Shown here piece by piece: positions 28,972 to 57,990 of a stretch of DNA of 64,000 nucleotides. The notes under the pieces were generated by a model. It had not been told where the DNA came from. It was given only the letters and a program-made list of their open reading frames with translations, and made no database searches. Positions within the stretch are counted from its first letter, which is position 1. Each line of letters begins with the position of its first letter. The position numbers and the translations under genes were made by a program. Origin of the DNA: Sporolactobacillus sp. (GTDB taxonomy: Bacteria > Bacillota > Bacilli > Bacillales > Sporolactobacillaceae); assembly GCA_047722915.1 (NCBI GenBank), contig JBDNZQ010000011.1, forward strand, positions 20,535 to 84,534, read 5' to 3'.

Positions 28972-30243
28972 TTGTTCCATTTTGGGCAGCGGAAGGGGAG
29001 AGAAGCATTGCAGCGCGGCCAAGGGAGAATTATTTTTCATCTGGATATGAACTCTTTCTTCGCTTCTGTCGAGCAGGCTCATCATCCTGAATTGCGCGGC
29101 AAACCGCTGGCCATTGCCGGGCGTCAGGAAGAGCGACACGGCATTGTTGTTACAAGCAGTTACGAAGCCAGACAGTGGGGTGTGCGCACGCCAATGCTCG
29201 TCAGCGAAGCCGTGCGGCTTTGCCCGCAGTTGATCATTCGCCAGCCCGATTTTGAATTATACCGGGCAACTTCTGCGATGCTTTTTAAAATGCTGCGGCG
29301 TTATACCGAGCGAATCGAGAAGGCGTCGATTGACGAAGGCTATCTTGATATGACGGGTTATGCCGGCACGGAACCGATTATCTCACTTGCCATGCATATC
29401 CAGCGGCGAATTCTCCGGGAGATGAAGCTACCGTCAAGCCTTGGCATTTCTCCAAACAAGTTTTTGGCAAAAATGGCATCGAATATGAAAAAGCCGCTTG
29501 GATTGACTGTTTTGCGGCTCAGAGATATTCAAGAAAAACTTTGGCCGCTGCCGATCGGTACGATGCACGGTATCGGTGCAAAAACTGAAAAAAAATTGAA
29601 ACGGCTTGGCATTCAGACCATTGGAGACCTGGCAGGCAGTGATCGCCTGCGGATGGCTGAACGGTTTGGCCAGTACGGCGTGAAGATGTGGGAACGAGCC
29701 AATGGTCGTGACGATCGACCGGTTGATCCGGAGGCATGGGAACGCTACAAGACGATCGGCCATTCCGTGACTTTGGCGAAGGATACCGTGTCGCCCGATA
29801 GGATCGCCGAAACTTTTGAATCTCTCGCTCAAAAGCTGGAAAGTCAAGTGAAACGTGAACACGTTGTGGCTTATGAGTTAATGATTACGATTCGTTATGC
29901 GACTTGGCAAACGGCCACCCGACATTTTTCGCTGAAACAGCCACTCTATGAAGCCAAGGCCATCAGCGAGCAAGCCCGGCTGCTCTTTCTTTCAATGTGG
30001 GCGGGTCAGGCTGTACGACTGCTCGGTATTACGCTTGGTGATTTTCAGCCGTTTGCCTCAGCGACAAAGCAACTTGATCTTTTTTCTTATACAGAGGATA
30101 TTCGCGCAGAAGCACGGACTGCGCTCATTGAGGATATTCGCGCACGTTTCGGTGCGGAAGCGCTCAAGCCTGCGGCGGCGCTTATCGCCGGTAAGCCGAC
30201 AAATCATGAGTTACGCAAGCGTACGGACAGCGGTCCGCTATGA
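28972..30243 (+). CDS. dinB: DNA polymerase IV (Y-family, PolY1/DinB)
   Basis: Motifs IFHLDMNSFFASVE, SIDEGYLD and a helix-hairpin-helix. A TTG at 29008 after RBS GGAGAG is the likelier start. There is no LexA box upstream. Confidence 0.85.
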   Translation: MFHFGQRKGREALQRGQGRIIFHLDMNSFFASVEQAHHPELRGKPLAIAGRQEERHGIVVTSSYEARQWGVRTPMLVSEAVRLCPQLIIRQPDFELYRATSAMLFKMLRRYTERIEKASIDEGYLDMTGYAGTEPIISLAMHIQRRILREMKLPSSLGISPNKFLAKMASNMKKPLGLTVLRLRDIQEKLWPLPIGTMHGIGAKTEKKLKRLGIQTIGDLAGSDRLRMAERFGQYGVKMWERANGRDDRPVDPEAWERYKTIGHSVTLAKDTVSPDRIAETFESLAQKLESQVKREHVVAYELMITIRYATWQTATRHFSLKQPLYEAKAISEQARLLFLSMWAGQAVRLLGITLGDFQPFASATKQLDLFSYTEDIRAEARTALIEDIRARFGAEALKPAAALIAGKPTNHELRKRTDSGPL

Positions 30244-35242: not shown

Positions 35243-35947
35243 TTAAGCGGTGGCTGCAGCGAGCGCGATATGCACCATGTCATCAAGCGTGTGCTCGCGT
35301 TCGGCGGCACTTGTTGCTTCACCGCTGAACACATGATCGCTGACGGTTAATACCGTCAGCGCGCGCACACCATATTTGGCCGCCAGAGTATATAGAGCGG
35401 CCGTCTCCATTTCAACCGCGAGTACGCCGCAATTCGCCAGATACTTGAGCGGTTCCATGCTGTCGCGATAAAAGACGTCAGTGGACAGGATATTGCCAGC
35501 GTGCACCGTCACCCCGCGTGTTTGCGCGGCTTGGTAGGCAGCGCAAAGCAGCCGGAAGTCGGCAGTCGGTGCGTAGTCAAACCCTTGGAAAGACAGACGG
35601 TTCATAGCCGAATCAGTCGTTGCTGACAGTGCGAGTACGACGTCACGAACGTGCAGCTTGGCCTGTAAACCACCGCAAGTACCGACGCGGATAAGGCATT
35701 TTGCACCGTATTCGCGAATCAACTCATTGACGTAAATGGCTAGGGAAGGCATCCCCATTCCCGAACCCTGAACAGAGATACGCTTTCCCCGATAATATCC
35801 TGTATAACCAAGCATGCCGCGAATGTGATTATAGGCCTCGGCTTTCTCAAGATACGTGTCAGCGATGTATTTGGCGCGGAGCGGATCGCCGGGCAGCAGA
35901 ACTGTTTCGGCGACTTGTCCTATCCTTGCTTCAATATGCGTGCTCAT
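35243..35947 (-). CDS. deoD: Purine nucleoside phosphorylase, DeoD type
   Basis: 234 aa containing [19 protein letters not shown] and EMETAALY. Confidence 0.9.
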
Positions 35948-40185: not shown

Positions 40186-40851
40186 TTGTTCGACAGACTT
40201 AAAGAGCGGGGAGTGCTGGCCGTGAAAGAAAAAATGAATGTCGTGTTTATGCGACATTTAACGGAATATCGTTCACTATACGTTTTTGTGACGGCACTAT
40301 TTTTAATGGGCATCATTTTTGGCGCAGTTGTTGTCAATGGTTTACCTTATGGCACGCGAAGCAGCCTGCTTCAATATATGGAAAACTTTTTGAGCGATTT
40401 GGCGGGCGGACGTGTGGCTGATCCGCCAGTTCTTTTGCAAGAGGGGATTGGCAATAATATTCAATACGCCGGATTGATTTGGCTGCTTGGTCTGTCGGTC
40501 ATCGGATTGCCACTGCTCTTCGTCCTCATTTTCGTGCGGGGATTATTTCTTGGTTTCACTATTGGTTTTCTACTAAGCGAAATGGGCATGAAAGGTCTCG
40601 GCATTGCCATTGTCGGCGTTTTTCCGCAAAATTTGCTCGTCATTCCCGCCGATATATTTTTGACGGTCGCTGCTGTCTCGTGTTCATTGAAAATCATTCG
40701 CCGTCTCATTGTAAAAATTAGCCGCGATCCGCTGTTACCTCAAGGTATCAGCTATGCCGGAGTGTTGCTGGCTGTCACGGCTCTGCAAACACTGGCCTGT
40801 GTGTTTGAAGCGTACGTGTCACCTGCACTTGTTCACGTGCTTGTTCAATGA
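40186..40851 (+). CDS. spoIIM: Stage II sporulation protein M
   Basis: Polytopic membrane protein (LYVFVTALFLMGIIFGAVVVN...). It is syntenic with B. subtilis spoIIM-fur. The start is uncertain: a GTG at 40222 or the ATG near 40234 are also possible. Confidence 0.8.
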   Translation: MFDRLKERGVLAVKEKMNVVFMRHLTEYRSLYVFVTALFLMGIIFGAVVVNGLPYGTRSSLLQYMENFLSDLAGGRVADPPVLLQEGIGNNIQYAGLIWLLGLSVIGLPLLFVLIFVRGLFLGFTIGFLLSEMGMKGLGIAIVGVFPQNLLVIPADIFLTVAAVSCSLKIIRRLIVKISRDPLLPQGISYAGVLLAVTALQTLACVFEAYVSPALVHVLVQ

Positions 40852-41018: not shown

Positions 41019-41080
41019 GTAAAAGAAATGCATACGACTGTTTGTTAAGGATGGTTGCTTTACTGCGGGAGGGAACGCAC

Positions 41081-41587
41081 GTGGAAGAGGGCCGCATTAA
41101 TCGGATAAAAAAGCAACTGCATGCGCAAAAATATAAGCTGACGCCTCAACGGGAAGCGACCGTACGCGTTTTACTTGAGAATGAGCAAGATCATCTCAGC
41201 GCTGAAGATGTCTACCTTCTCGTTAAAGAAAAATCTCCGGAAATCGGCTTAGCCACCGTTTACCGAACGCTGGAATTACTGTCGGAATTAAAGGTTGTCG
41301 ATAAAATAAATTTTGGCGACGGTGTCTATCGTTATGATTTACGCCGTGAAGGGGCGAATCATTTTCATCACCATCTTGTGTGCATTGAATGCGGGGCGGT
41401 CGATGAAATTCAGGAAGATTTGCTCGGCGATGTTGAGAAAGTTGTTGAGCAACGCTGGCATTTTAAAGTGAAGGACCATCGTTTGACGTTTCACGGCATT
41501 TGTCATCGATGCCAAGAAAAACATGAAGAGGAGCAGCGGCAGCTGTCGGAGCGGAATTTAGTAAAGTCCGGTATGAATCAGGCGTAA
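41081..41587 (+). CDS. fur: Ferric uptake regulator
   Basis: I prefer the GTG at 41081 after RBS GGGAGGGA. It is near-identical in long stretches to B. subtilis Fur (KLTPQREATVRVLLENE.DHLSAEDVYLLVKEKSPEIGLATVYRTLELL.ELKVVDKINFGDG) and has HHHL.C..CG and HGICHRC. Confidence 0.9.
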   Translation: MEEGRINRIKKQLHAQKYKLTPQREATVRVLLENEQDHLSAEDVYLLVKEKSPEIGLATVYRTLELLSELKVVDKINFGDGVYRYDLRREGANHFHHHLVCIECGAVDEIQEDLLGDVEKVVEQRWHFKVKDHRLTFHGICHRCQEKHEEEQRQLSERNLVKSGMNQA

Positions 41588-41853: not shown

Positions 41854-42130
41854 GGTGGTTGCACTTAGAGTGTACATTCAAGAAGGTAAGATAAAACAAA
41901 CGCTAAATGGTATTGCAAAACGTTGGCTTTGCCCCATTTGACTGATTTGAAGGGTAAACAGCCGTTGACGGAGCATGCTGAAATAGAGAAAGTTCAAGGC
42001 ATGCAGCATCAGCTTCCGGCGCCATGTGAGCGGAAACAGCAGCATATTTGCCGGCGATCTGTCGTATATGTGCATGGACGGTAACTGTTTTTTTGTTGCT
42101 GCAGACGTGGCGTTAGGGGGGGAAGGAGCA

Positions 42131-42367
42131 ATGAGGACAGCGGCCGGACGCGCAGTGGATGCGCTGAAATTTGTCGCAATTTTTGCGGGACTGATGCTAT
42201 TCTTTTACGAAGCCATGCTTTGGCTTGATCGCTTTGATGTGTATTCGCACCGCTACGATAACCCGGGTAGCGATGCAGTGCAGGTCTTTCAAACGGGTGA
42301 TGCAGAGCATCAACTCGGCCACGGATTAACCCGGCGCTTTCTTGAATTTATTAGAGACGGAGAGTAA
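42131..42367 (+). CDS. Small membrane protein, YqkK-like by position
   Basis: I prefer the ATG at 42131 after RBS GGGGGGGAAGGAG. 78 aa with one TM segment (FVAIFAGLMLFFYEAMLWL). It lies between fur and xerD, as yqkK does in B. subtilis. Confidence 0.5.
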   Translation: MRTAAGRAVDALKFVAIFAGLMLFFYEAMLWLDRFDVYSHRYDNPGSDAVQVFQTGDAEHQLGHGLTRRFLEFIRDGE

Positions 42368-42369
42368 AG

Positions 42370-43260
42370 ATGACGGAGCCAGACGTCCAGCTTACTGATT
42401 TTCTTGAATACGCAGCTTGCGAGCGGCATTTGACAGCCAACACGCTGAGCGCCTATCGCAGTGACTTGCTGCAATATGCCGGGTTTGCCTTTCAGCAGCG
42501 ACAGTGTACCGCTTGGCCGGACGTGGATGAGTTGGTTGTGCGCAAGTATGTGTTGTGGCTAAAAGAAAATGGCAATGCACTGTCAACGGTGGCGAGAAAA
42601 GTGGCAGCCATCCGAGGATTTCACCGTTTTTTAGTCATGCACCGTGGGTTTGCAAGTGATCCCACCTATGCGCTCGAATTACCGCGCCCGCCGCTGCGTC
42701 CGTTGCCGTTATTGACACTTTCGCAAGTCCAACAGCTGCTTGAGGCGCCTGATAGTGAAACAGCTGTCGGCCGGCGTGACCGCGCTGTTTTGGAACTGCT
42801 GTATGCTTCGGGCATTCAAATCAGTGAATTAATTGCTTTGAACTATGAGGACGTGCATCTCGATCTGTGTGCTATTCATTGCGGGGCGGTCAAAAGGAAC
42901 GAACGTGTCGTGCCTTTTGGTCATTATGCCCGGCAGGCGTTAGCCACTTATATGGAACGGGATAAGCGGACTTATGAAAAATCAGGTGCGGTGCCGCTGT
43001 TCATTAACGGGCGCGGAGGACGTTTCAGCCGTCAAGGCATTTGGAAAACTTTGAAACAGTATGGGGTAGTGCTTGGCATCAGCCAGTTATTCTCACCGGA
43101 GACATTGCGACAGTCGCTGGCGGTACATCTGCTTGAAAATGGAGCAGACCTCCAATCGGTCGACACACTCCTGGGCCGTAAAAGCGTACTGCATGCCCGA
43201 CAGGTGACGGCTCATTTGCCATTGAACACATTTTATCATCGCTATCATCCCCGTGCTTAA
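42370..43260 (+). CDS. xerD: XerD-like tyrosine recombinase homologue with a degenerate active site
   Basis: 296 aa, colinear with B. subtilis RipX/XerD from the N-terminal core-binding domain to the C-terminal HPRA. It reads GIQISEL instead of G.RVSEL, PETLRQS instead of PHTLRHS, LLGR instead of LLGH, and QVTAHL instead of QIYTHV. Confidence 0.85.
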   Translation: MTEPDVQLTDFLEYAACERHLTANTLSAYRSDLLQYAGFAFQQRQCTAWPDVDELVVRKYVLWLKENGNALSTVARKVAAIRGFHRFLVMHRGFASDPTYALELPRPPLRPLPLLTLSQVQQLLEAPDSETAVGRRDRAVLELLYASGIQISELIALNYEDVHLDLCAIHCGAVKRNERVVPFGHYARQALATYMERDKRTYEKSGAVPLFINGRGGRFSRQGIWKTLKQYGVVLGISQLFSPETLRQSLAVHLLENGADLQSVDTLLGRKSVLHARQVTAHLPLNTFYHRYHPRA

Positions 43261-43298: not shown

Positions 43299-44114
43299 AT
43301 GAAAATAAAAAGGTTGGACAGCGTGCTTCGTGTGATTGGCGATTTGCCAGGTGAGCGGCCGCGAATTGCTTTGATCCTCGGTTCGGGACTCGGAGATATA
43401 GCCGATGGCGTGAACGTGAAGCGCGTGATTGATTACCGCGATTTGCCTGAATTTCCGGTACCGACAGCCGAAGGTCATAAGGGGCGCTTTGTGATCGGTG
43501 AACTGGGAAACCAACCGGTTATTGTTATGCAGGGACGCTACCATTATTATGAAGGGTATTCGCTTGAGCAAATTGTTCTTCCGGTACAAGTCATGCATGC
43601 GCTCGGTGCAAACACGCTAATTGTGACGAATGCGGCCGGTGCGGTCAATCGCTCCTTTGCTCCCGGTGACTTCATGCTGATTAACGATCATATTAACATG
43701 CTCGGCCGCAGTCCGCTCATCGGCCCGAACGATGAGGCCATCGGACCGCGTTTTCCCGATATGACGGCAGCCTATGATCGTGAACTGATTGCGCTGGCAC
43801 GCCGCGTGTCCACTGAACTTGGCATGCGCCTGCGGGAGGGTGTCTATCTGGCAACTCCCGGCCCTCAGTATGAAACACCCGCCGAAGTGCGGATGATACG
43901 TACACTTGGCGCCGATGCTGTCGGGATGTCGACCGTTCCTGAAGTGATTGCAGCCCGGCATGCAGGTATGCGGGTGCTTGGTTTGTCATGTCTGACGAAC
44001 ATGGGAGCCGGTATGGTGTCCACCCCGCTTTCCCACCAGGAAGTCATTGAAACCGGACAGCGCGTTCAAGTGCAGTTTGCCGCGCTGATCCGCCGGCTTG
44101 TTGCCGAACTGTAA
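43299..44114 (+). CDS. punA: Purine nucleoside phosphorylase (PunA/PupG, trimeric type)
   Basis: 271 aa containing ILGSGLG, HKGRFVIGELG and VGMSTVPEVIAARH. Confidence 0.9.
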   Translation: MKIKRLDSVLRVIGDLPGERPRIALILGSGLGDIADGVNVKRVIDYRDLPEFPVPTAEGHKGRFVIGELGNQPVIVMQGRYHYYEGYSLEQIVLPVQVMHALGANTLIVTNAAGAVNRSFAPGDFMLINDHINMLGRSPLIGPNDEAIGPRFPDMTAAYDRELIALARRVSTELGMRLREGVYLATPGPQYETPAEVRMIRTLGADAVGMSTVPEVIAARHAGMRVLGLSCLTNMGAGMVSTPLSHQEVIETGQRVQVQFAALIRRLVAEL

Positions 44115-44265: not shown

Positions 44266-44715
44266 ATGGAAAGAGGGATTCATTTGATTATCAGACCTAT
44301 GCAAATAGAAGATTATAATGCTGTATACACTTTGTGGTCTACTACTACTGGAATGGGAATGCGCAGCTTAGATGATTCATTAGAGGGTATTACAAGACTT
44401 TTGGTTCGAAATCCTAATACATGCTTTGTAGCGGAACTCGACAATCAAATAATAGGCGTGATATTATGCGGACAAGATGGAAGAAGAGGTTATATTTATC
44501 ATACAGCTGTAAAGTCCGATCATAGAAACAATGGGATAGGCAAGACCTTAGTGGACGCTGCACTTGAGGCATTAAAAAGGGAAAAAATCAATAAAGTTGC
44601 ACTTGTTGTCTTTACAACTAATCGTTTGGGAAATGAATTTTGGAAACACATCGGCTTTGATATGCGAGAGGATTTGGTTTATAGAAATATTAGTCTGAAT
44701 GCCCAAAATACATAA
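44266..44715 (+). CDS. GNAT family N-acetyltransferase
   Basis: Acetyl-CoA motif HRNNGIGKTLVDAAL. AT-rich relative to its neighbours. The TTG at 44281 after RBS AGAGGGA is a likelier start than the ATG at 44266. Confidence 0.75.
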   Translation: MERGIHLIIRPMQIEDYNAVYTLWSTTTGMGMRSLDDSLEGITRLLVRNPNTCFVAELDNQIIGVILCGQDGRRGYIYHTAVKSDHRNNGIGKTLVDAALEALKREKINKVALVVFTTNRLGNEFWKHIGFDMREDLVYRNISLNAQNT

Positions 44716-45087
44716 TTGCCTCAGTATGAGCGCAATGTAAAACTGCCGCACCTGATATACAGGGCGGCGGTTTCACATTTCCATCTGTTGGCTTATTTGT
44801 TTGTTCTCTTATGGAATCTGCCCATTATACGCTGCTTTATCCCGGTTAACGTTCGGCTGAATCACGCGGTGAGAAGCAATGCTTTATCGGCATGAGCGGC
44901 GATAGAAAGCGGATGGATCTCTCTGCGTTCAAGGGCAGGCACAGCACCCGCCACTCGGAAAGCAGCAACCAGGCTACTGCTGTTAATAATTCTTAAAGAT
45001 TGTAAAGATATGGTATGAAAGGCTTACGAGTGGCCCAAGGTCGTGTATACTTTTTTCTGTTCAGTGTGCGCGCAAAGGAGAAGCTTC

Positions 45088-46587
45088 ATGAACAGCGGAA
45101 AACGAAACTTGACACGTCTTGGAATCAAAGCCATTTCTTATCTTTTCACCTTAGTTGCGGTGATCATTCTGCTGCTTAATCTGTTCTATTCTCGCGGTTA
45201 CGAATCGGTAGGCTTGCGGGCATCATTCGTGTTCAAGGGGGTGACGCTGCTGGTGGCTGGAGCCGGGGTTGCCATGCTCATCTGGCGAAACCGGCAGATC
45301 GTGCGGCATCTGTCCCGAGTGCCGCCGAGGTGGGCCGTCACTGCGTTGCTGATCGTTAGCCTGCTGCTTCAGAGCGGGGTGCTGATTTTTCTAAATGTGC
45401 GTCCGTCTTGGGATTTTCGCTACCTTGTTGACGGAGCGAACTATGTTCTGCACAATGGCACGATCAGCAGCTACTTTTTTCGTTATCCAAATAATATCTT
45501 TCCGATGCTGTTACTGGCTGCGCTTGGCTGGCTTGGCACGCCGCAACTCCTTTTCTATCAGATCGTTAACATTGTGGCCATTGCTGCGTCGCAATATATG
45601 GTTTATCAATTTGTCAGGCGTCGCTGTGGTCAAGGTGTAGCCTTGGCCTGCCTGTTTGCTGCGGTGTTTGCTTTTCCGCTGATCGGCTATGCGCCGATCG
45701 TCTATACCGATACGCTGCCGCTTCCCTTTGCGATGGCAGCGCTTTGCCTGATGACGAATTCGTCGGGCGAGTTGAAGACGCACGGGTGCAATGTATGGCT
45801 TGTTTCACTGACGGTTGCCGTCTGCTTTATGTTGAAAGGTACGCTCATTGTTTTGCCCATCGCTTATGCCCTTGTTTTATTGCTGTTTGCCGGCGGTTGG
45901 CGCAAGTTCTTTTCACTGCTTCCGCTCATCACGTGCTTGGTTTTTCACTTTATTTTTTTTACCATGATCTATGATTTCGGACTCGTCGACCACGCCCAGA
46001 TTAGCAAAAATGCTTTCCCCATTGCCCATTGGATACTGATGGGAGAGAATGAGTGGACATACGGAAAGTATGAACAGCGCGATGTGGATACGACGCATCG
46101 GCTTATGATAAGCGAACCCAAAGCGGCAGTGACGCAGCAGCTGCTGAATGAAACACGCGAACGCATTATGAAACGGGGCTTTCTTGGCAATCTTCATTTT
46201 TGGATGGAGAAATTGGCTATGACGTGGACGGACGGTACGTTCTACGTCGTTAATGTGCTGCGCCGATTGCCTGAGCACCCACCGCTCTTTCGTGCCTTTC
46301 TGTTCAACGGGTTGACGGCGTTCTTTGTTCAAGCGATGGCCCGCATGGCTCTTATTGTTCTGGCTGTTGGCTTTTTCAGCGCCGCCTGTCGTTCGCGTAA
46401 ATGCCTGTTGAGCGCGTCAGACTGCTTTATGATGTTGACATGCATCGGTTTGTTTTTTTTCCTTTGCATATGGGAGACGCGTTCGCGCTATCTTGTCAGC
46501 GCCATCCCTTACTTTATTATCCTTGCAGCGTCCGGTTATTTTCCATCCCGGCACTTGCCTTTGATTTCCCATAACACCCAAAAGTAA
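45088..46587 (+). CDS. Polytopic membrane glycosyltransferase-like protein (GT-C fold, ArnT/PMT_2-like)
   Basis: I prefer the ATG at 45088 after RBS AAAGGAGAAG. 499 aa with at least 11 TM segments and the loop motif FRYPNNIFP. The family assignment rests on topology and weak motif similarity only. Confidence 0.55.
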   Translation: MNSGKRNLTRLGIKAISYLFTLVAVIILLLNLFYSRGYESVGLRASFVFKGVTLLVAGAGVAMLIWRNRQIVRHLSRVPPRWAVTALLIVSLLLQSGVLIFLNVRPSWDFRYLVDGANYVLHNGTISSYFFRYPNNIFPMLLLAALGWLGTPQLLFYQIVNIVAIAASQYMVYQFVRRRCGQGVALACLFAAVFAFPLIGYAPIVYTDTLPLPFAMAALCLMTNSSGELKTHGCNVWLVSLTVAVCFMLKGTLIVLPIAYALVLLLFAGGWRKFFSLLPLITCLVFHFIFFTMIYDFGLVDHAQISKNAFPIAHWILMGENEWTYGKYEQRDVDTTHRLMISEPKAAVTQQLLNETRERIMKRGFLGNLHFWMEKLAMTWTDGTFYVVNVLRRLPEHPPLFRAFLFNGLTAFFVQAMARMALIVLAVGFFSAACRSRKCLLSASDCFMMLTCIGLFFFLCIWETRSRYLVSAIPYFIILAASGYFPSRHLPLISHNTQK

Positions 46588-56612: not shown

Positions 56613-57398
56613 GTGGAGTATAAAGTAAAAATTGATGCTTTTGAAGGGCCGCTTGACCTGCTGCTGCATTTAATCAAAGAGTTTGAAATTGACATCTATG
56701 ATATTCCGGTGGCTGAGATTACCGATCAGTATTTACACTTTATTCATGATATGCAAGTACTCGAATTAAATGTGGCCAGTGAGTACCTCGTCATGGCGGC
56801 CACGCTGATTGCGATGAAAAGCCGAATGTTGCTTCCTCGTCCTGAACCGGTTGATGAATCGGAGGATGATGTCTTTGAGGATGCAGAGGATTCGCGCCAG
56901 ATGCTCATGCGTCGGCTTCAAGAATATAAGCAATTTAAAGAAATGGCGGCCACGCTGCGTGAGAGTGAGACGGATCGATTGCTATTTTTCTCCAAACCGG
57001 CAGACGTACTCGAAGGTATCGGCAAAAATCTTTTACTTATACCAAAAAGTGAACGTTCGAGCACACATGATTTAATGCGAGCTTTTCAGCATATGCTGCA
57101 GCGGCGCAGATTAGAGATGCCGCTCACGACTAAAATTGACCGGCAGTCTCTGCCGATCGGACGGCAGATGAGTGTCCTAATGAGCCGGTTAAAAAAAACG
57201 ACGACAGCGCTAAGCTTTTCGGCACTGTGTGATGCATATGACCGTTCTTCGCTGGTCGTCACTTTTTTGGCATTGCTTGAGTTGATGAAGAAACGGGCGA
57301 TAAAATGCACGCAGGCCGACAATTTTGCAGAGATTCAAATCGGGCTCGGAGAGGAGGCCGGTCAGTTTGACGGATCCAATGACATGTTCGATTATTGA
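56613..57398 (+). CDS. scpA: Segregation and condensation protein A
   Basis: 261 aa. GTG start. MEYKVKIDAFEGPLDLLLHLI is nearly identical to the B. subtilis ScpA N-terminus. Confidence 0.9.
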   Translation: MEYKVKIDAFEGPLDLLLHLIKEFEIDIYDIPVAEITDQYLHFIHDMQVLELNVASEYLVMAATLIAMKSRMLLPRPEPVDESEDDVFEDAEDSRQMLMRRLQEYKQFKEMAATLRESETDRLLFFSKPADVLEGIGKNLLLIPKSERSSTHDLMRAFQHMLQRRRLEMPLTTKIDRQSLPIGRQMSVLMSRLKKTTTALSFSALCDAYDRSSLVVTFLALLELMKKRAIKCTQADNFAEIQIGLGEEAGQFDGSNDMFDY

Positions 57399-57990
57399 AG
57401 GGCTGCTGTATGTCAGCGGTGAAGAGGGGGTGGCAGTCAACCAGGTGGCCAAAGTTTTGGATGATTGCGCAGAACAAGATATTCACCGCCTGATTAAGCA
57501 CATGAAACAGTCATATGATGACGACCCTGCTTGCGGCTTGACAATTGTTGATACACCTAGCGGGTACCGGCTAACGACCAAGCCTTCTTTGGCGTCCTAT
57601 GTGGAATGTTTTGCGGCCATCCCCAAAGCGTCCCCGCTGTCGCAGGCGGCGCTTGAGACAGTGGCCATTATTGCCTATCGACAGCCGGTATCGCGTATCG
57701 AGATTGATGATATTCGTGGCGTGAAGTCAGACCGCGCGCTGCACAGTTTGCTGCTTAAAGGCATGATCTGTGAAAAGGGGCGAGCTGACAGTGTGGGCAG
57801 GGCGATTCTTTACGGGGTGACGCCACTTTTTCTTGATTATTTTGGTTTCCGTTCCCTTGATGAATTGCCGCCGCTGTTTCACGCGGCACAAACGCCTAAC
57901 GAACAACTGGATGCCTATGATTTATTTTATGATAAATACAAAGAAACATTGAATGATCTAGAGACGCAGACGAAGGACGAATCCGTCTGA
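57379..57990 (+). CDS. scpB: Segregation and condensation protein B
   Basis: I prefer the ATG at 57379 (MTCSIIEGLLYVSGEEG). It contains LSQAALETVAIIAYRQPVSRIEIDDIRGVKSD. It overlaps scpA by 20 nt. Confidence 0.9.
   Translation: MTCSIIEGLLYVSGEEGVAVNQVAKVLDDCAEQDIHRLIKHMKQSYDDDPACGLTIVDTPSGYRLTTKPSLASYVECFAAIPKASPLSQAALETVAIIAYRQPVSRIEIDDIRGVKSDRALHSLLLKGMICEKGRADSVGRAILYGVTPLFLDYFGFRSLDELPPLFHAAQTPNEQLDAYDLFYDKYKETLNDLETQTKDESV

Follow-up and report, generated by a model that had tools for sequence, protein, structure and literature searches.

An orthologue of XerD with a largely replaced active site at the canonical locus of Sporolactobacillus, retained under purifying selection

The XerCD/dif system is among the most conserved housekeeping systems of bacteria and, to our knowledge, the XerS lineage is its only textbook exception in the Bacillota. 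Of the Firmicutes examined in one study, 97% had a predicted dif site (PMC3025954). XerD-like proteins have been described in streptococci and lactococci (YnbA; NF002685 / HAMAP MF_01817), whose genomes use XerS, and the streptococcal protein is without the extreme C-terminus, clusters with integrases of phages and shows no binding to difSL (PMC1914069). A function of XerD other than recombination is described in reports that cite Karaboja 2021 (PMC11840125, PMC11894783, PMC10945525, PMC8357415), according to which B. subtilis XerD located on XDS unloads Smc-ScpAB near the terminus. In addition, YopR of SPbeta is a DNA-binding repressor that has the tyrosine-recombinase fold and no recombinase activity (bioRxiv 10.1101/2022.10.21.513154). 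Here we describe a xerD-like gene found at positions 42370 to 43260 of a 64,000-nucleotide stretch of DNA from Sporolactobacillus sp. (contig JBDNZQ010000011.1 of assembly GCA_047722915.1), which we call the window. The gene is a XerD orthologue at the canonical locus of a spore-forming genus of the Bacillales, and in this genus catalysis appears to have been lost in steps and repeatedly, under purifying selection.

The original prediction, made from the letters of the sequence, had proposed a full-length XerD homologue with an intact reading frame at the canonical locus, and this description held. The open reading frame (ORF) and its two domains are as follows.

42370..43260, + strand: XerD-like coding sequence (CDS); intact ORF with ATG start and TAA stop, 296 amino acids
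42394..42636, + strand: N-terminal core-binding (SAM-like) domain, residues 9-89; Pfam PF02899 Phage_int_SAM_1, E 1.1e-14; conserved
42712..43200, + strand: C-terminal tyrosine-recombinase fold, residues 115-277; Pfam PF00589 Phage_integrase, E 1.4e-27

The protein is colinear with E. coli XerD 1A0P over residues 8-284 (phmmer, E 5e-37) and about 40-43% identical to Bacillaceae XerD. It has in common with canonical XerD (B. subtilis RipX, E. coli XerD; TIGR02225) the locus, the length, the two-domain fold, the RQGxWK helix and the HPRA tail. The top NCBIfam model was that of XerD, TIGR02225, with a score of 242.8 bits that lies under the cut-off of 329.6; the scores against XerC TIGR02224 (203.8 bits, cut-off 335.15) and XerS NF003462 (54.5 bits, cut-off 267) were also too low for assignment to these families. 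The window and all Sporolactobacillus loci retrieved share the gene order spoIIM-fur-DUF4227-xerD-like-punA, which established orthology by synteny in the window and 12 related loci, and the order fur-DUF4227-xerD-punA is also present in canonical Bacillaceae loci (L008, L024). The window ORF is the positional orthologue of XerD. An AlphaFold2 (AF2) model had a mean predicted local distance difference test score (pLDDT) of 87.5 and a predicted template modelling score of 0.71, with the fold retained and low confidence limited to residues 273-280 (pLDDT <50). The best PDB matches of this model in Foldseek were XerA and XerD (E ~1e-13), followed by other tyrosine recombinases. As a side observation, about 290 residues of PDB 9i5v chain 14 (401 residues, named 'Ribosome-associated translation inhibitor RaiA') align with the XerD-like protein (E 3e-25), and the aligned part ends in HPRA; the RaiA label looks wrong for this chain.

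The active site was compared with the catalytic residues of E. coli XerD, R148, K172, H244, R247, H270 and Y279. In 61 canonical XerD sequences, R148, H244, R247, H270 and Y279 were 100% conserved and K172 was 95% conserved. Unlike these proteins, the window protein has four to five of the six residues replaced, Arg I and the nucleophilic Tyr among them, and the six positions read Q, V (with K at +1), E, R, R and T/V.

42817..42819, + strand: Gln150 at the Arg I (R148) position; codon CAA, verified
42889..42894, + strand: Val174-Lys175 at the beta-hairpin Lys (K172); Val174 lies under K172 and Lys at +1
43099..43110, + strand: E244-T-L-R247, the HxxR box reading ETLR; His II is Glu (GAG, 43099-43101) and Arg II is kept
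43177..43179, + strand: Arg270 at the His III (H270) position; codon CGT
43180..43233, + strand: degenerate tyrosine segment, residues 271-288, with a 2-residue deletion
43207-43209, + strand: Thr280 at the nucleophile (Y279) position; codon ACG, verified

The replacements of Arg I by Gln, of HxxR by ETLR and of LLGH by LLGR had been predicted and were all recovered, as was that of the His following the HxxR box, H248 of E. coli XerD, which is Q in the phmmer alignment. Two other predicted replacements stood in part. Replacement of the lysine agrees with the location of Val174 under K172, the first K of GKGNKER in E. coli XerD, but K175 lies one residue past that position. Loss of the lysine is therefore less certain than the other losses, and the catalytic Lys may survive in a shifted register. 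At the nucleophile position, the Thr codon and the absence of Tyr were as predicted, but MAFFT sets V279, not T280, under the tyrosine owing to the 2-residue deletion. Whichever alignment is used, Tyr is absent between residues 232 and 288, and the last 60 residues hold just two tyrosines, Y289 and Y292, both located in the tail beyond the tyrosine segment, and the Y289 column is already Tyr in 97% of the canonical sequences. A check of alignment and structure had been proposed together with the prediction; other Tyr or Arg residues that could reach the active site through a register shift were sought and none was found. As far as can be judged from its residues, the window protein lacks the standard chemistry to form a phosphotyrosyl bond.

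The replacements are not peculiar to the window genome. A set of 20 Sporolactobacillus orthologues, only ~45-65% identical to one another, was assembled from a one-genome-per-species scan (eight Sporolactobacillus loci), look-ups (P0002, P0004 and P0131) and a profile search (S. inulinus, S. pectinivorans, strains THM7-7 and CPB3-1, and a number of uncultured lineages). Profile scores separate this clade (>=426 bits) from canonical XerD (<=392 bits), and in the database search a few relatives with 49-52% identity were followed, after a gap, by canonical XerD at ~40%. His II is Glu in 20/20 members, and E244 was absent from all other homologues examined. His III is Arg in 19/20, with P0127 retaining His; Arg II is kept throughout, and the Lys hairpin changed from GKGxKER to GxKGxER across the genus. 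Arg I is replaced solely in the subclade of the window, by His in S. spathodeae, P0002, WK069 and P0131 and by Gln in the window, and is Arg in the others. The nucleophile position is Tyr in 11 of the 20 proteins and has lost it in nine, being Phe in S. inulinus, S. pectinivorans, P0132, P0004, S. spathodeae, P0002 and WK069, Leu in P0131 and Thr/Val in the window. In tyrosine recombinases, exchange of Tyr for Phe is the classical way to abolish activity (bioRxiv 10.1101/2022.10.21.513154). The sister genera Scopulibacillus and Caenibacillus have the canonical R-K-H-R-H-Y, which is also kept in 232 other XerD homologues examined. The expectation that such a protein would be unusual in a spore-former with a Bacillus-like locus was thus confirmed.

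In a neighbour-joining tree built with the catalytic columns masked, the Sporolactobacillus clade had a bootstrap value of 100 and a long stem branch. The window protein falls into one group with P0131, WK069 and S. spathodeae (bootstrap 91), and S. inulinus, which has Phe, is sister to a group that keeps Tyr (bootstrap 100). Because of this last position, Tyr must have been lost at least two times, or lost and then regained. The active-site change is a trait of the whole genus that decayed in steps, and the window protein is the most eroded of the clade members. No second, canonical XerD under a Sporolactobacillus name was present among the best 120 matches listed in the database searches, where sister-genus XerDs did appear, and this is weak evidence.

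Altered catalytic sets were also seen outside the genus. The XerD orthologue of Cohnella cellulosilytica (L047:10001-10870), located in a spoIIM-fur...punA region, reads R-S-Q-R-V-Y, and the XerD of a Bacillota metagenome-assembled genome (MAG), L059, reads R-S-Q-R-M-Y, both being without Lys and both His; in Paenibacillus antibioticophila (L052:10001-10894), K172 is replaced by Asp. Active-site erosion in the Paenibacillaceae looks convergent on the basis of these sequences. Homologues from Clostridia MAGs (L029, L031, L034, L038 and L045) have R-(E/D/G)-Q-R-H-Y, those from Mogibacterium/Anaerovoracaceae (L035, L037, L075, L078 and L079) have R-(V/N/S)-(Q/I)-R-F-Y, and the homologue of one rumen Bacillota MAG (L062) has Phe in place of the tyrosine. 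All the proteins of these three groups are named here as homologues and not as positional orthologues.

The original prediction had likened the degeneration of the window protein to that of the inactive XerD-like proteins of streptococci and lactococci, but these are a different family. Both are annotated as relatives of XerD, have an incomplete catalytic set and show conservation in their own lineage (PMC1914069). However, unlike the streptococcal protein, the window protein is full length, with its 296 amino acids ending in a conserved YHPRA, and its position makes it the orthologue of Bacillus XerD. Membership in the streptococcal family was rejected, since NF002685 gave 34.5 bits against a cut-off of 178. 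The Sporolactobacillus case is an independent origin of the theme of the inactive XerD-like protein. Since the protein falls below the XerD equivalog cut-off and does not have the catalytic residue set, it should be called a XerD-derived pseudo-recombinase. A search of the available literature library found no published link between Sporolactobacillus and Xer.

Selection on the gene was assessed by the ratio of non-synonymous to synonymous substitution rates (dN/dS), which was 0.06-0.20 across the pairs with unsaturated dS. It was 0.06-0.11 for L003-L009, 0.13-0.20 for L001-L005 (dS 0.5-0.7), 0.15-0.19 for L001-L003, and 0.08-0.13 for S. spathodeae (L016) and L081, a pair without Tyr and Arg I (dS 0.15-0.21, 48 nucleotide differences). 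This check had been suggested along with the prediction, and the values are well under 1, including in the pair that has no Tyr. Between the window and every relative, dS was saturated and dN was 0.41-0.50. The window protein retains 54 of the 57 columns that are invariant in the other 19 clade members, the three changes being D/E, T/S and A/G. With intact ORFs in 20 lineages, these results agree with the earlier view of a retained rather than dead gene, for which we infer a non-catalytic function. Compared over identical genome pairs, the dN of the xerD-like gene exceeded that of punA and spoIIM by a factor of 2.5-3.6. The 61 canonical XerD define 86 columns with a conservation of at least 90%, of which 51 are kept in Sporolactobacillus, and these are unevenly distributed, with 10/31 kept in residues 244-285 versus 41/55 elsewhere (Fisher p = 2e-4). 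Mean identity within the genus and within canonical XerD was distributed by region as follows.

Tyr segment, residues 271-288: genus 0.33, canonical XerD 0.74
Pocket helices, residues 244-270: genus 0.71, canonical XerD 0.91
N-domain: genus 0.49, canonical XerD 0.41
C-domain core: genus 0.53, canonical XerD 0.54
Tail: genus 0.67, canonical XerD 0.69

Constraint is relaxed locally in the tyrosine segment, and the N-domain, the C-domain core and the tail are not relaxed. The 891-nucleotide CDS and 2 kb of flanking DNA were identical in the Logan assemblies of separate runs (SRR26216075 and SRR26216074), and the guanine-cytosine content (GC), overall and at third codon positions (GC3), matches that of the neighbouring genes. 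Three explanations were rejected: a pseudogene is contradicted by the dN/dS values, the intact ORFs and the retention of clade-invariant residues, an assembly artefact by the two identical independent assemblies together with isolate genomes, and horizontal acquisition by the neighbour-like GC and GC3 and the conserved synteny.

Two regions outside the active site were kept.

43030..43056, + strand: presumed DNA-recognition helix motif RQGIWKTLK (R221-K229); fully conserved
43234..43257, + strand: C-terminal tail YHRYHPRA; conserved, with Y289, H293, P294 and R295 kept

In the canonical sequences, R221, Q222 and W225 never vary and G223, K226 and K229 are at least 92% conserved; the 11 Sporolactobacillus sequences aligned with them show no variation at any of the six. 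Preservation of the HPRA block, which had been predicted, was evident from the tail residues shared with canonical XerD; in canonical XerCD the tail docks on the partner protomer (PMC5052618). Nearly all Sporolactobacillus XerD-like proteins also have a Cys-x-x-Trp pair in the N-terminal domain, C46..W49 (window 42505-42516). C46 is missing only in S. pectinivorans, and the Cys, hence the pair, does not occur in canonical XerD; Trp49 alone occurs also in the sister genera Scopulibacillus, Caenibacillus and Terrilactibacillus. The pair represents a constraint gained in the Sporolactobacillus clade. The contacts of E. coli XerD with FtsK-gamma (E119, Q123, E184 and Y187) are not conserved in the window protein; by eye, they are not conserved in one canonical Bacillales XerD either, and are hence uninformative.

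Taken as a whole, the gene very probably encodes a XerD that is maintained by selection and does not cleave DNA. The sequences show that the active site changed first on the stem branch of the genus, where Glu took the place of His II and Arg then that of His III, and the Lys hairpin was remodelled. Catalysis could evidently be spared afterwards: Tyr was replaced at least two times (by Phe, Leu or Thr/Val) and Arg I changed to His or Gln in the subclade of the window, with the remaining protein under purifying selection throughout the decay. The resulting protein keeps the two-domain tyrosine-recombinase fold, in all likelihood clamps XerD-type half-sites and would form no phosphotyrosyl bond, acting, as we propose, as a site-specific architectural factor of the terminus region. 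It probably survives as a DNA-binding organiser of the chromosome and not as a recombinase. The job that we favour would be, once bound to XDS, the unloading of SMC-ScpAB, as B. subtilis XerD does without recombination; a possible additional job would be that of a non-cleaving partner that allows XerC to assemble on dif.

The parallel with B. subtilis lies in a related spore-former with a known non-recombination job for XerD and in the ScpA and ScpB genes of the window, 13 kb downstream of the xerD-like gene (56613-57398 and 57325-57990). Since both proteins are encoded there, the proposed unloading target exists; no smc gene was noted in the 64-kb window. The listed ScpA and ScpB ORFs overlap by 74 nucleotides, and the start of ScpB is probably further downstream. 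Unlike the window protein, B. subtilis XerD is also an active recombinase, so that here only the non-catalytic capacity could remain. SMC unloading in B. subtilis reportedly needs neither the catalysis of XerD nor CodV; a literature search turned up no statement that catalysis is not required for it. By analogy, SMC unloading as the main function is a tentative assignment that we hold to be possible and somewhat short of probable. The combined proposal, a selected, non-cleaving XerD with SMC unloading as its favoured job, has in our opinion slightly the better of an even chance.

Several points weigh against this proposal. No dif or XerD half-site was found in the 64-kb window, which has a uniformly positive GC skew and therefore holds no terminus. 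The protein-distance ratio between the xerD-like protein and its neighbours is 2-4 in Sporolactobacillus and ~1.1 in canonical Bacillaceae, and this faster evolution (2-4 times relative to neighbours), together with the clade-specific C46/W49, could mean a new function instead of a retained one. Those congeners that keep the tyrosine (R-K-E-R-R-Y) might be weakly active, and that catalysis was already lost at the root of the genus is a reading of the sequences. We infer, in addition, the binding to DNA, the link to SMC and the choice among non-catalytic jobs.

If XerD does not cleave, the question arises of how a circular chromosome resolves its dimers. By tblastn, no second recombinase, XerS included, was detected near the locus in the window and eight Sporolactobacillus flanks. 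We consider it rather doubtful, on present evidence, that the genus abandoned XerD catalysis altogether, with dimers resolved by XerC alone or another system and XerD kept for a recombination-independent organisation of the chromosome such as SMC-ScpAB unloading. If it is true, the gene would be a natural separation-of-function allele and a case in which selection maintains a non-catalytic role of XerD in the Bacillota. The case makes the recombination-independent purpose of XerD testable, the SMC-unloading role in B. subtilis predicting such an allele, and since the carriers include cultured, genome-sequenced species (S. inulinus, S. pectinivorans and S. spathodeae) the experiments are feasible.

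Other explanations can be set against SMC unloading as the main job. The protein could be above all the silent partner of XerC at dif, binding the XerD arm, building the synapse and perhaps taking the FtsK/SpoIIIE signal. XerC would then carry out the sole strand exchange and the Holliday junction would be finished by replication or RecU/RuvAB. At plasmid cer sites and in the integration of the CTX phage, XerC exchanges one strand pair in the presence of a XerD that does not cleave. The retained recognition helix and HPRA tail, the latter involved in the cyclic XerC-XerD contact (PMC5052618), also speak for this role. However, the FtsK-gamma contacts of E. coli are missing, although this is likewise so in the canonical protein mentioned above. 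In addition, exchange by XerC only is inefficient at the chromosomal dif of E. coli. We regard this as unlikely to be the main job, and it is compatible with SMC unloading. A still less probable alternative is a new function away from the terminus, for example as a transcriptional repressor or as a regulator of another recombinase. The residues C46 and W49, the (near-)invariant E244/R270 pair, the long stem branch and the rate of evolution would fit it, and YopR provides a precedent in that the fold was kept as a DNA-binding module after catalytic residues had been lost. Unlike the window protein, YopR belongs to a phage, is <25% identical to recombinases and keeps its Tyr, with no orthology or shared context. 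The unchanged locus and operon stand against a new function, as do the 41/55 family-conserved columns kept outside residues 244-285, recognition helix included, which argue for unchanged DNA specificity and partners.

The two remaining explanations are hardly credible. An enzyme still active through non-canonical residues or a shifted register could make use of the Lys one residue past the K172 position and of Arg II, and in the congeners that keep Tyr the Glu could serve as general base while the Arg contacts the phosphate. But the stretch between residues 232 and 288 offers no Tyr, and the Y289 column does not distinguish the window protein from canonical XerD. With Gln at Arg I, the closest Arg is R138. 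The tyrosine segment is poorly ordered in the AF2 model, and the position of the nucleophile tolerates Phe, Leu and Thr/Val among relatives. As for a decaying pseudogene, or an artefact of sequencing or MAG assembly, it could account for the score under the XerD cut-off and for non-synonymous evolution faster than that of the neighbours, and the source is indeed a MAG. Nevertheless, the low dN/dS, the neighbour-like GC and GC3, the identical CDS in two assemblies and the intact ORFs of all 20 lineages, cultured isolates included (S. spathodeae DSM 100968, S. inulinus and S. pectinivorans), contradict it. As dS to the nearest relative is saturated, a very recent loss of function in the window lineage alone is conceivable.

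The genes that mark the canonical locus in the window are listed below.

40186-40851: spoIIM; SpoIIM, upstream neighbour of fur
41042..41587, + strand: fur; NF051892, 267 bits; marker of the canonical locus
42026..42367, + strand: DUF4227 (YqzK/YqkK-type) gene; directly upstream of the xerD-like gene; 99 amino acids in other annotations
43299..44114, + strand: punA, purine-nucleoside phosphorylase; NF006054, 388 bits; context marker

The TAA stop codon of the DUF4227 gene (42365-42367) ends 2 nucleotides ahead of the ATG of the xerD-like gene, and a GGAG Shine-Dalgarno sequence (42359-42362) lies within the 3' end of the DUF4227 gene; the xerD-like gene is translationally coupled to it. A hairpin resembling a terminator follows fur and a promoter-like site precedes the DUF4227 gene; no terminator-like site was found between the DUF4227 gene, the xerD-like gene and punA. 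Public databases name the Sporolactobacillus orthologues "tyrosine-type recombinase/integrase" and, in some strains, XerD. Downstream of punA, the region 44266-46587 of the window codes for a GNAT acetyltransferase and a 514-amino-acid membrane protein (weak PMT_2 glycosyltransferase match) before dacF. In the related MAG locus L086, dacF directly follows punA, and 44266-46587 looks like a lineage-specific insertion. Upstream of the locus, a Y-family (IMS) DNA polymerase (28972-30243) and a second PNP_UDP_1 phosphorylase (DeoD-like; 35243-35947, minus strand) look ordinary.

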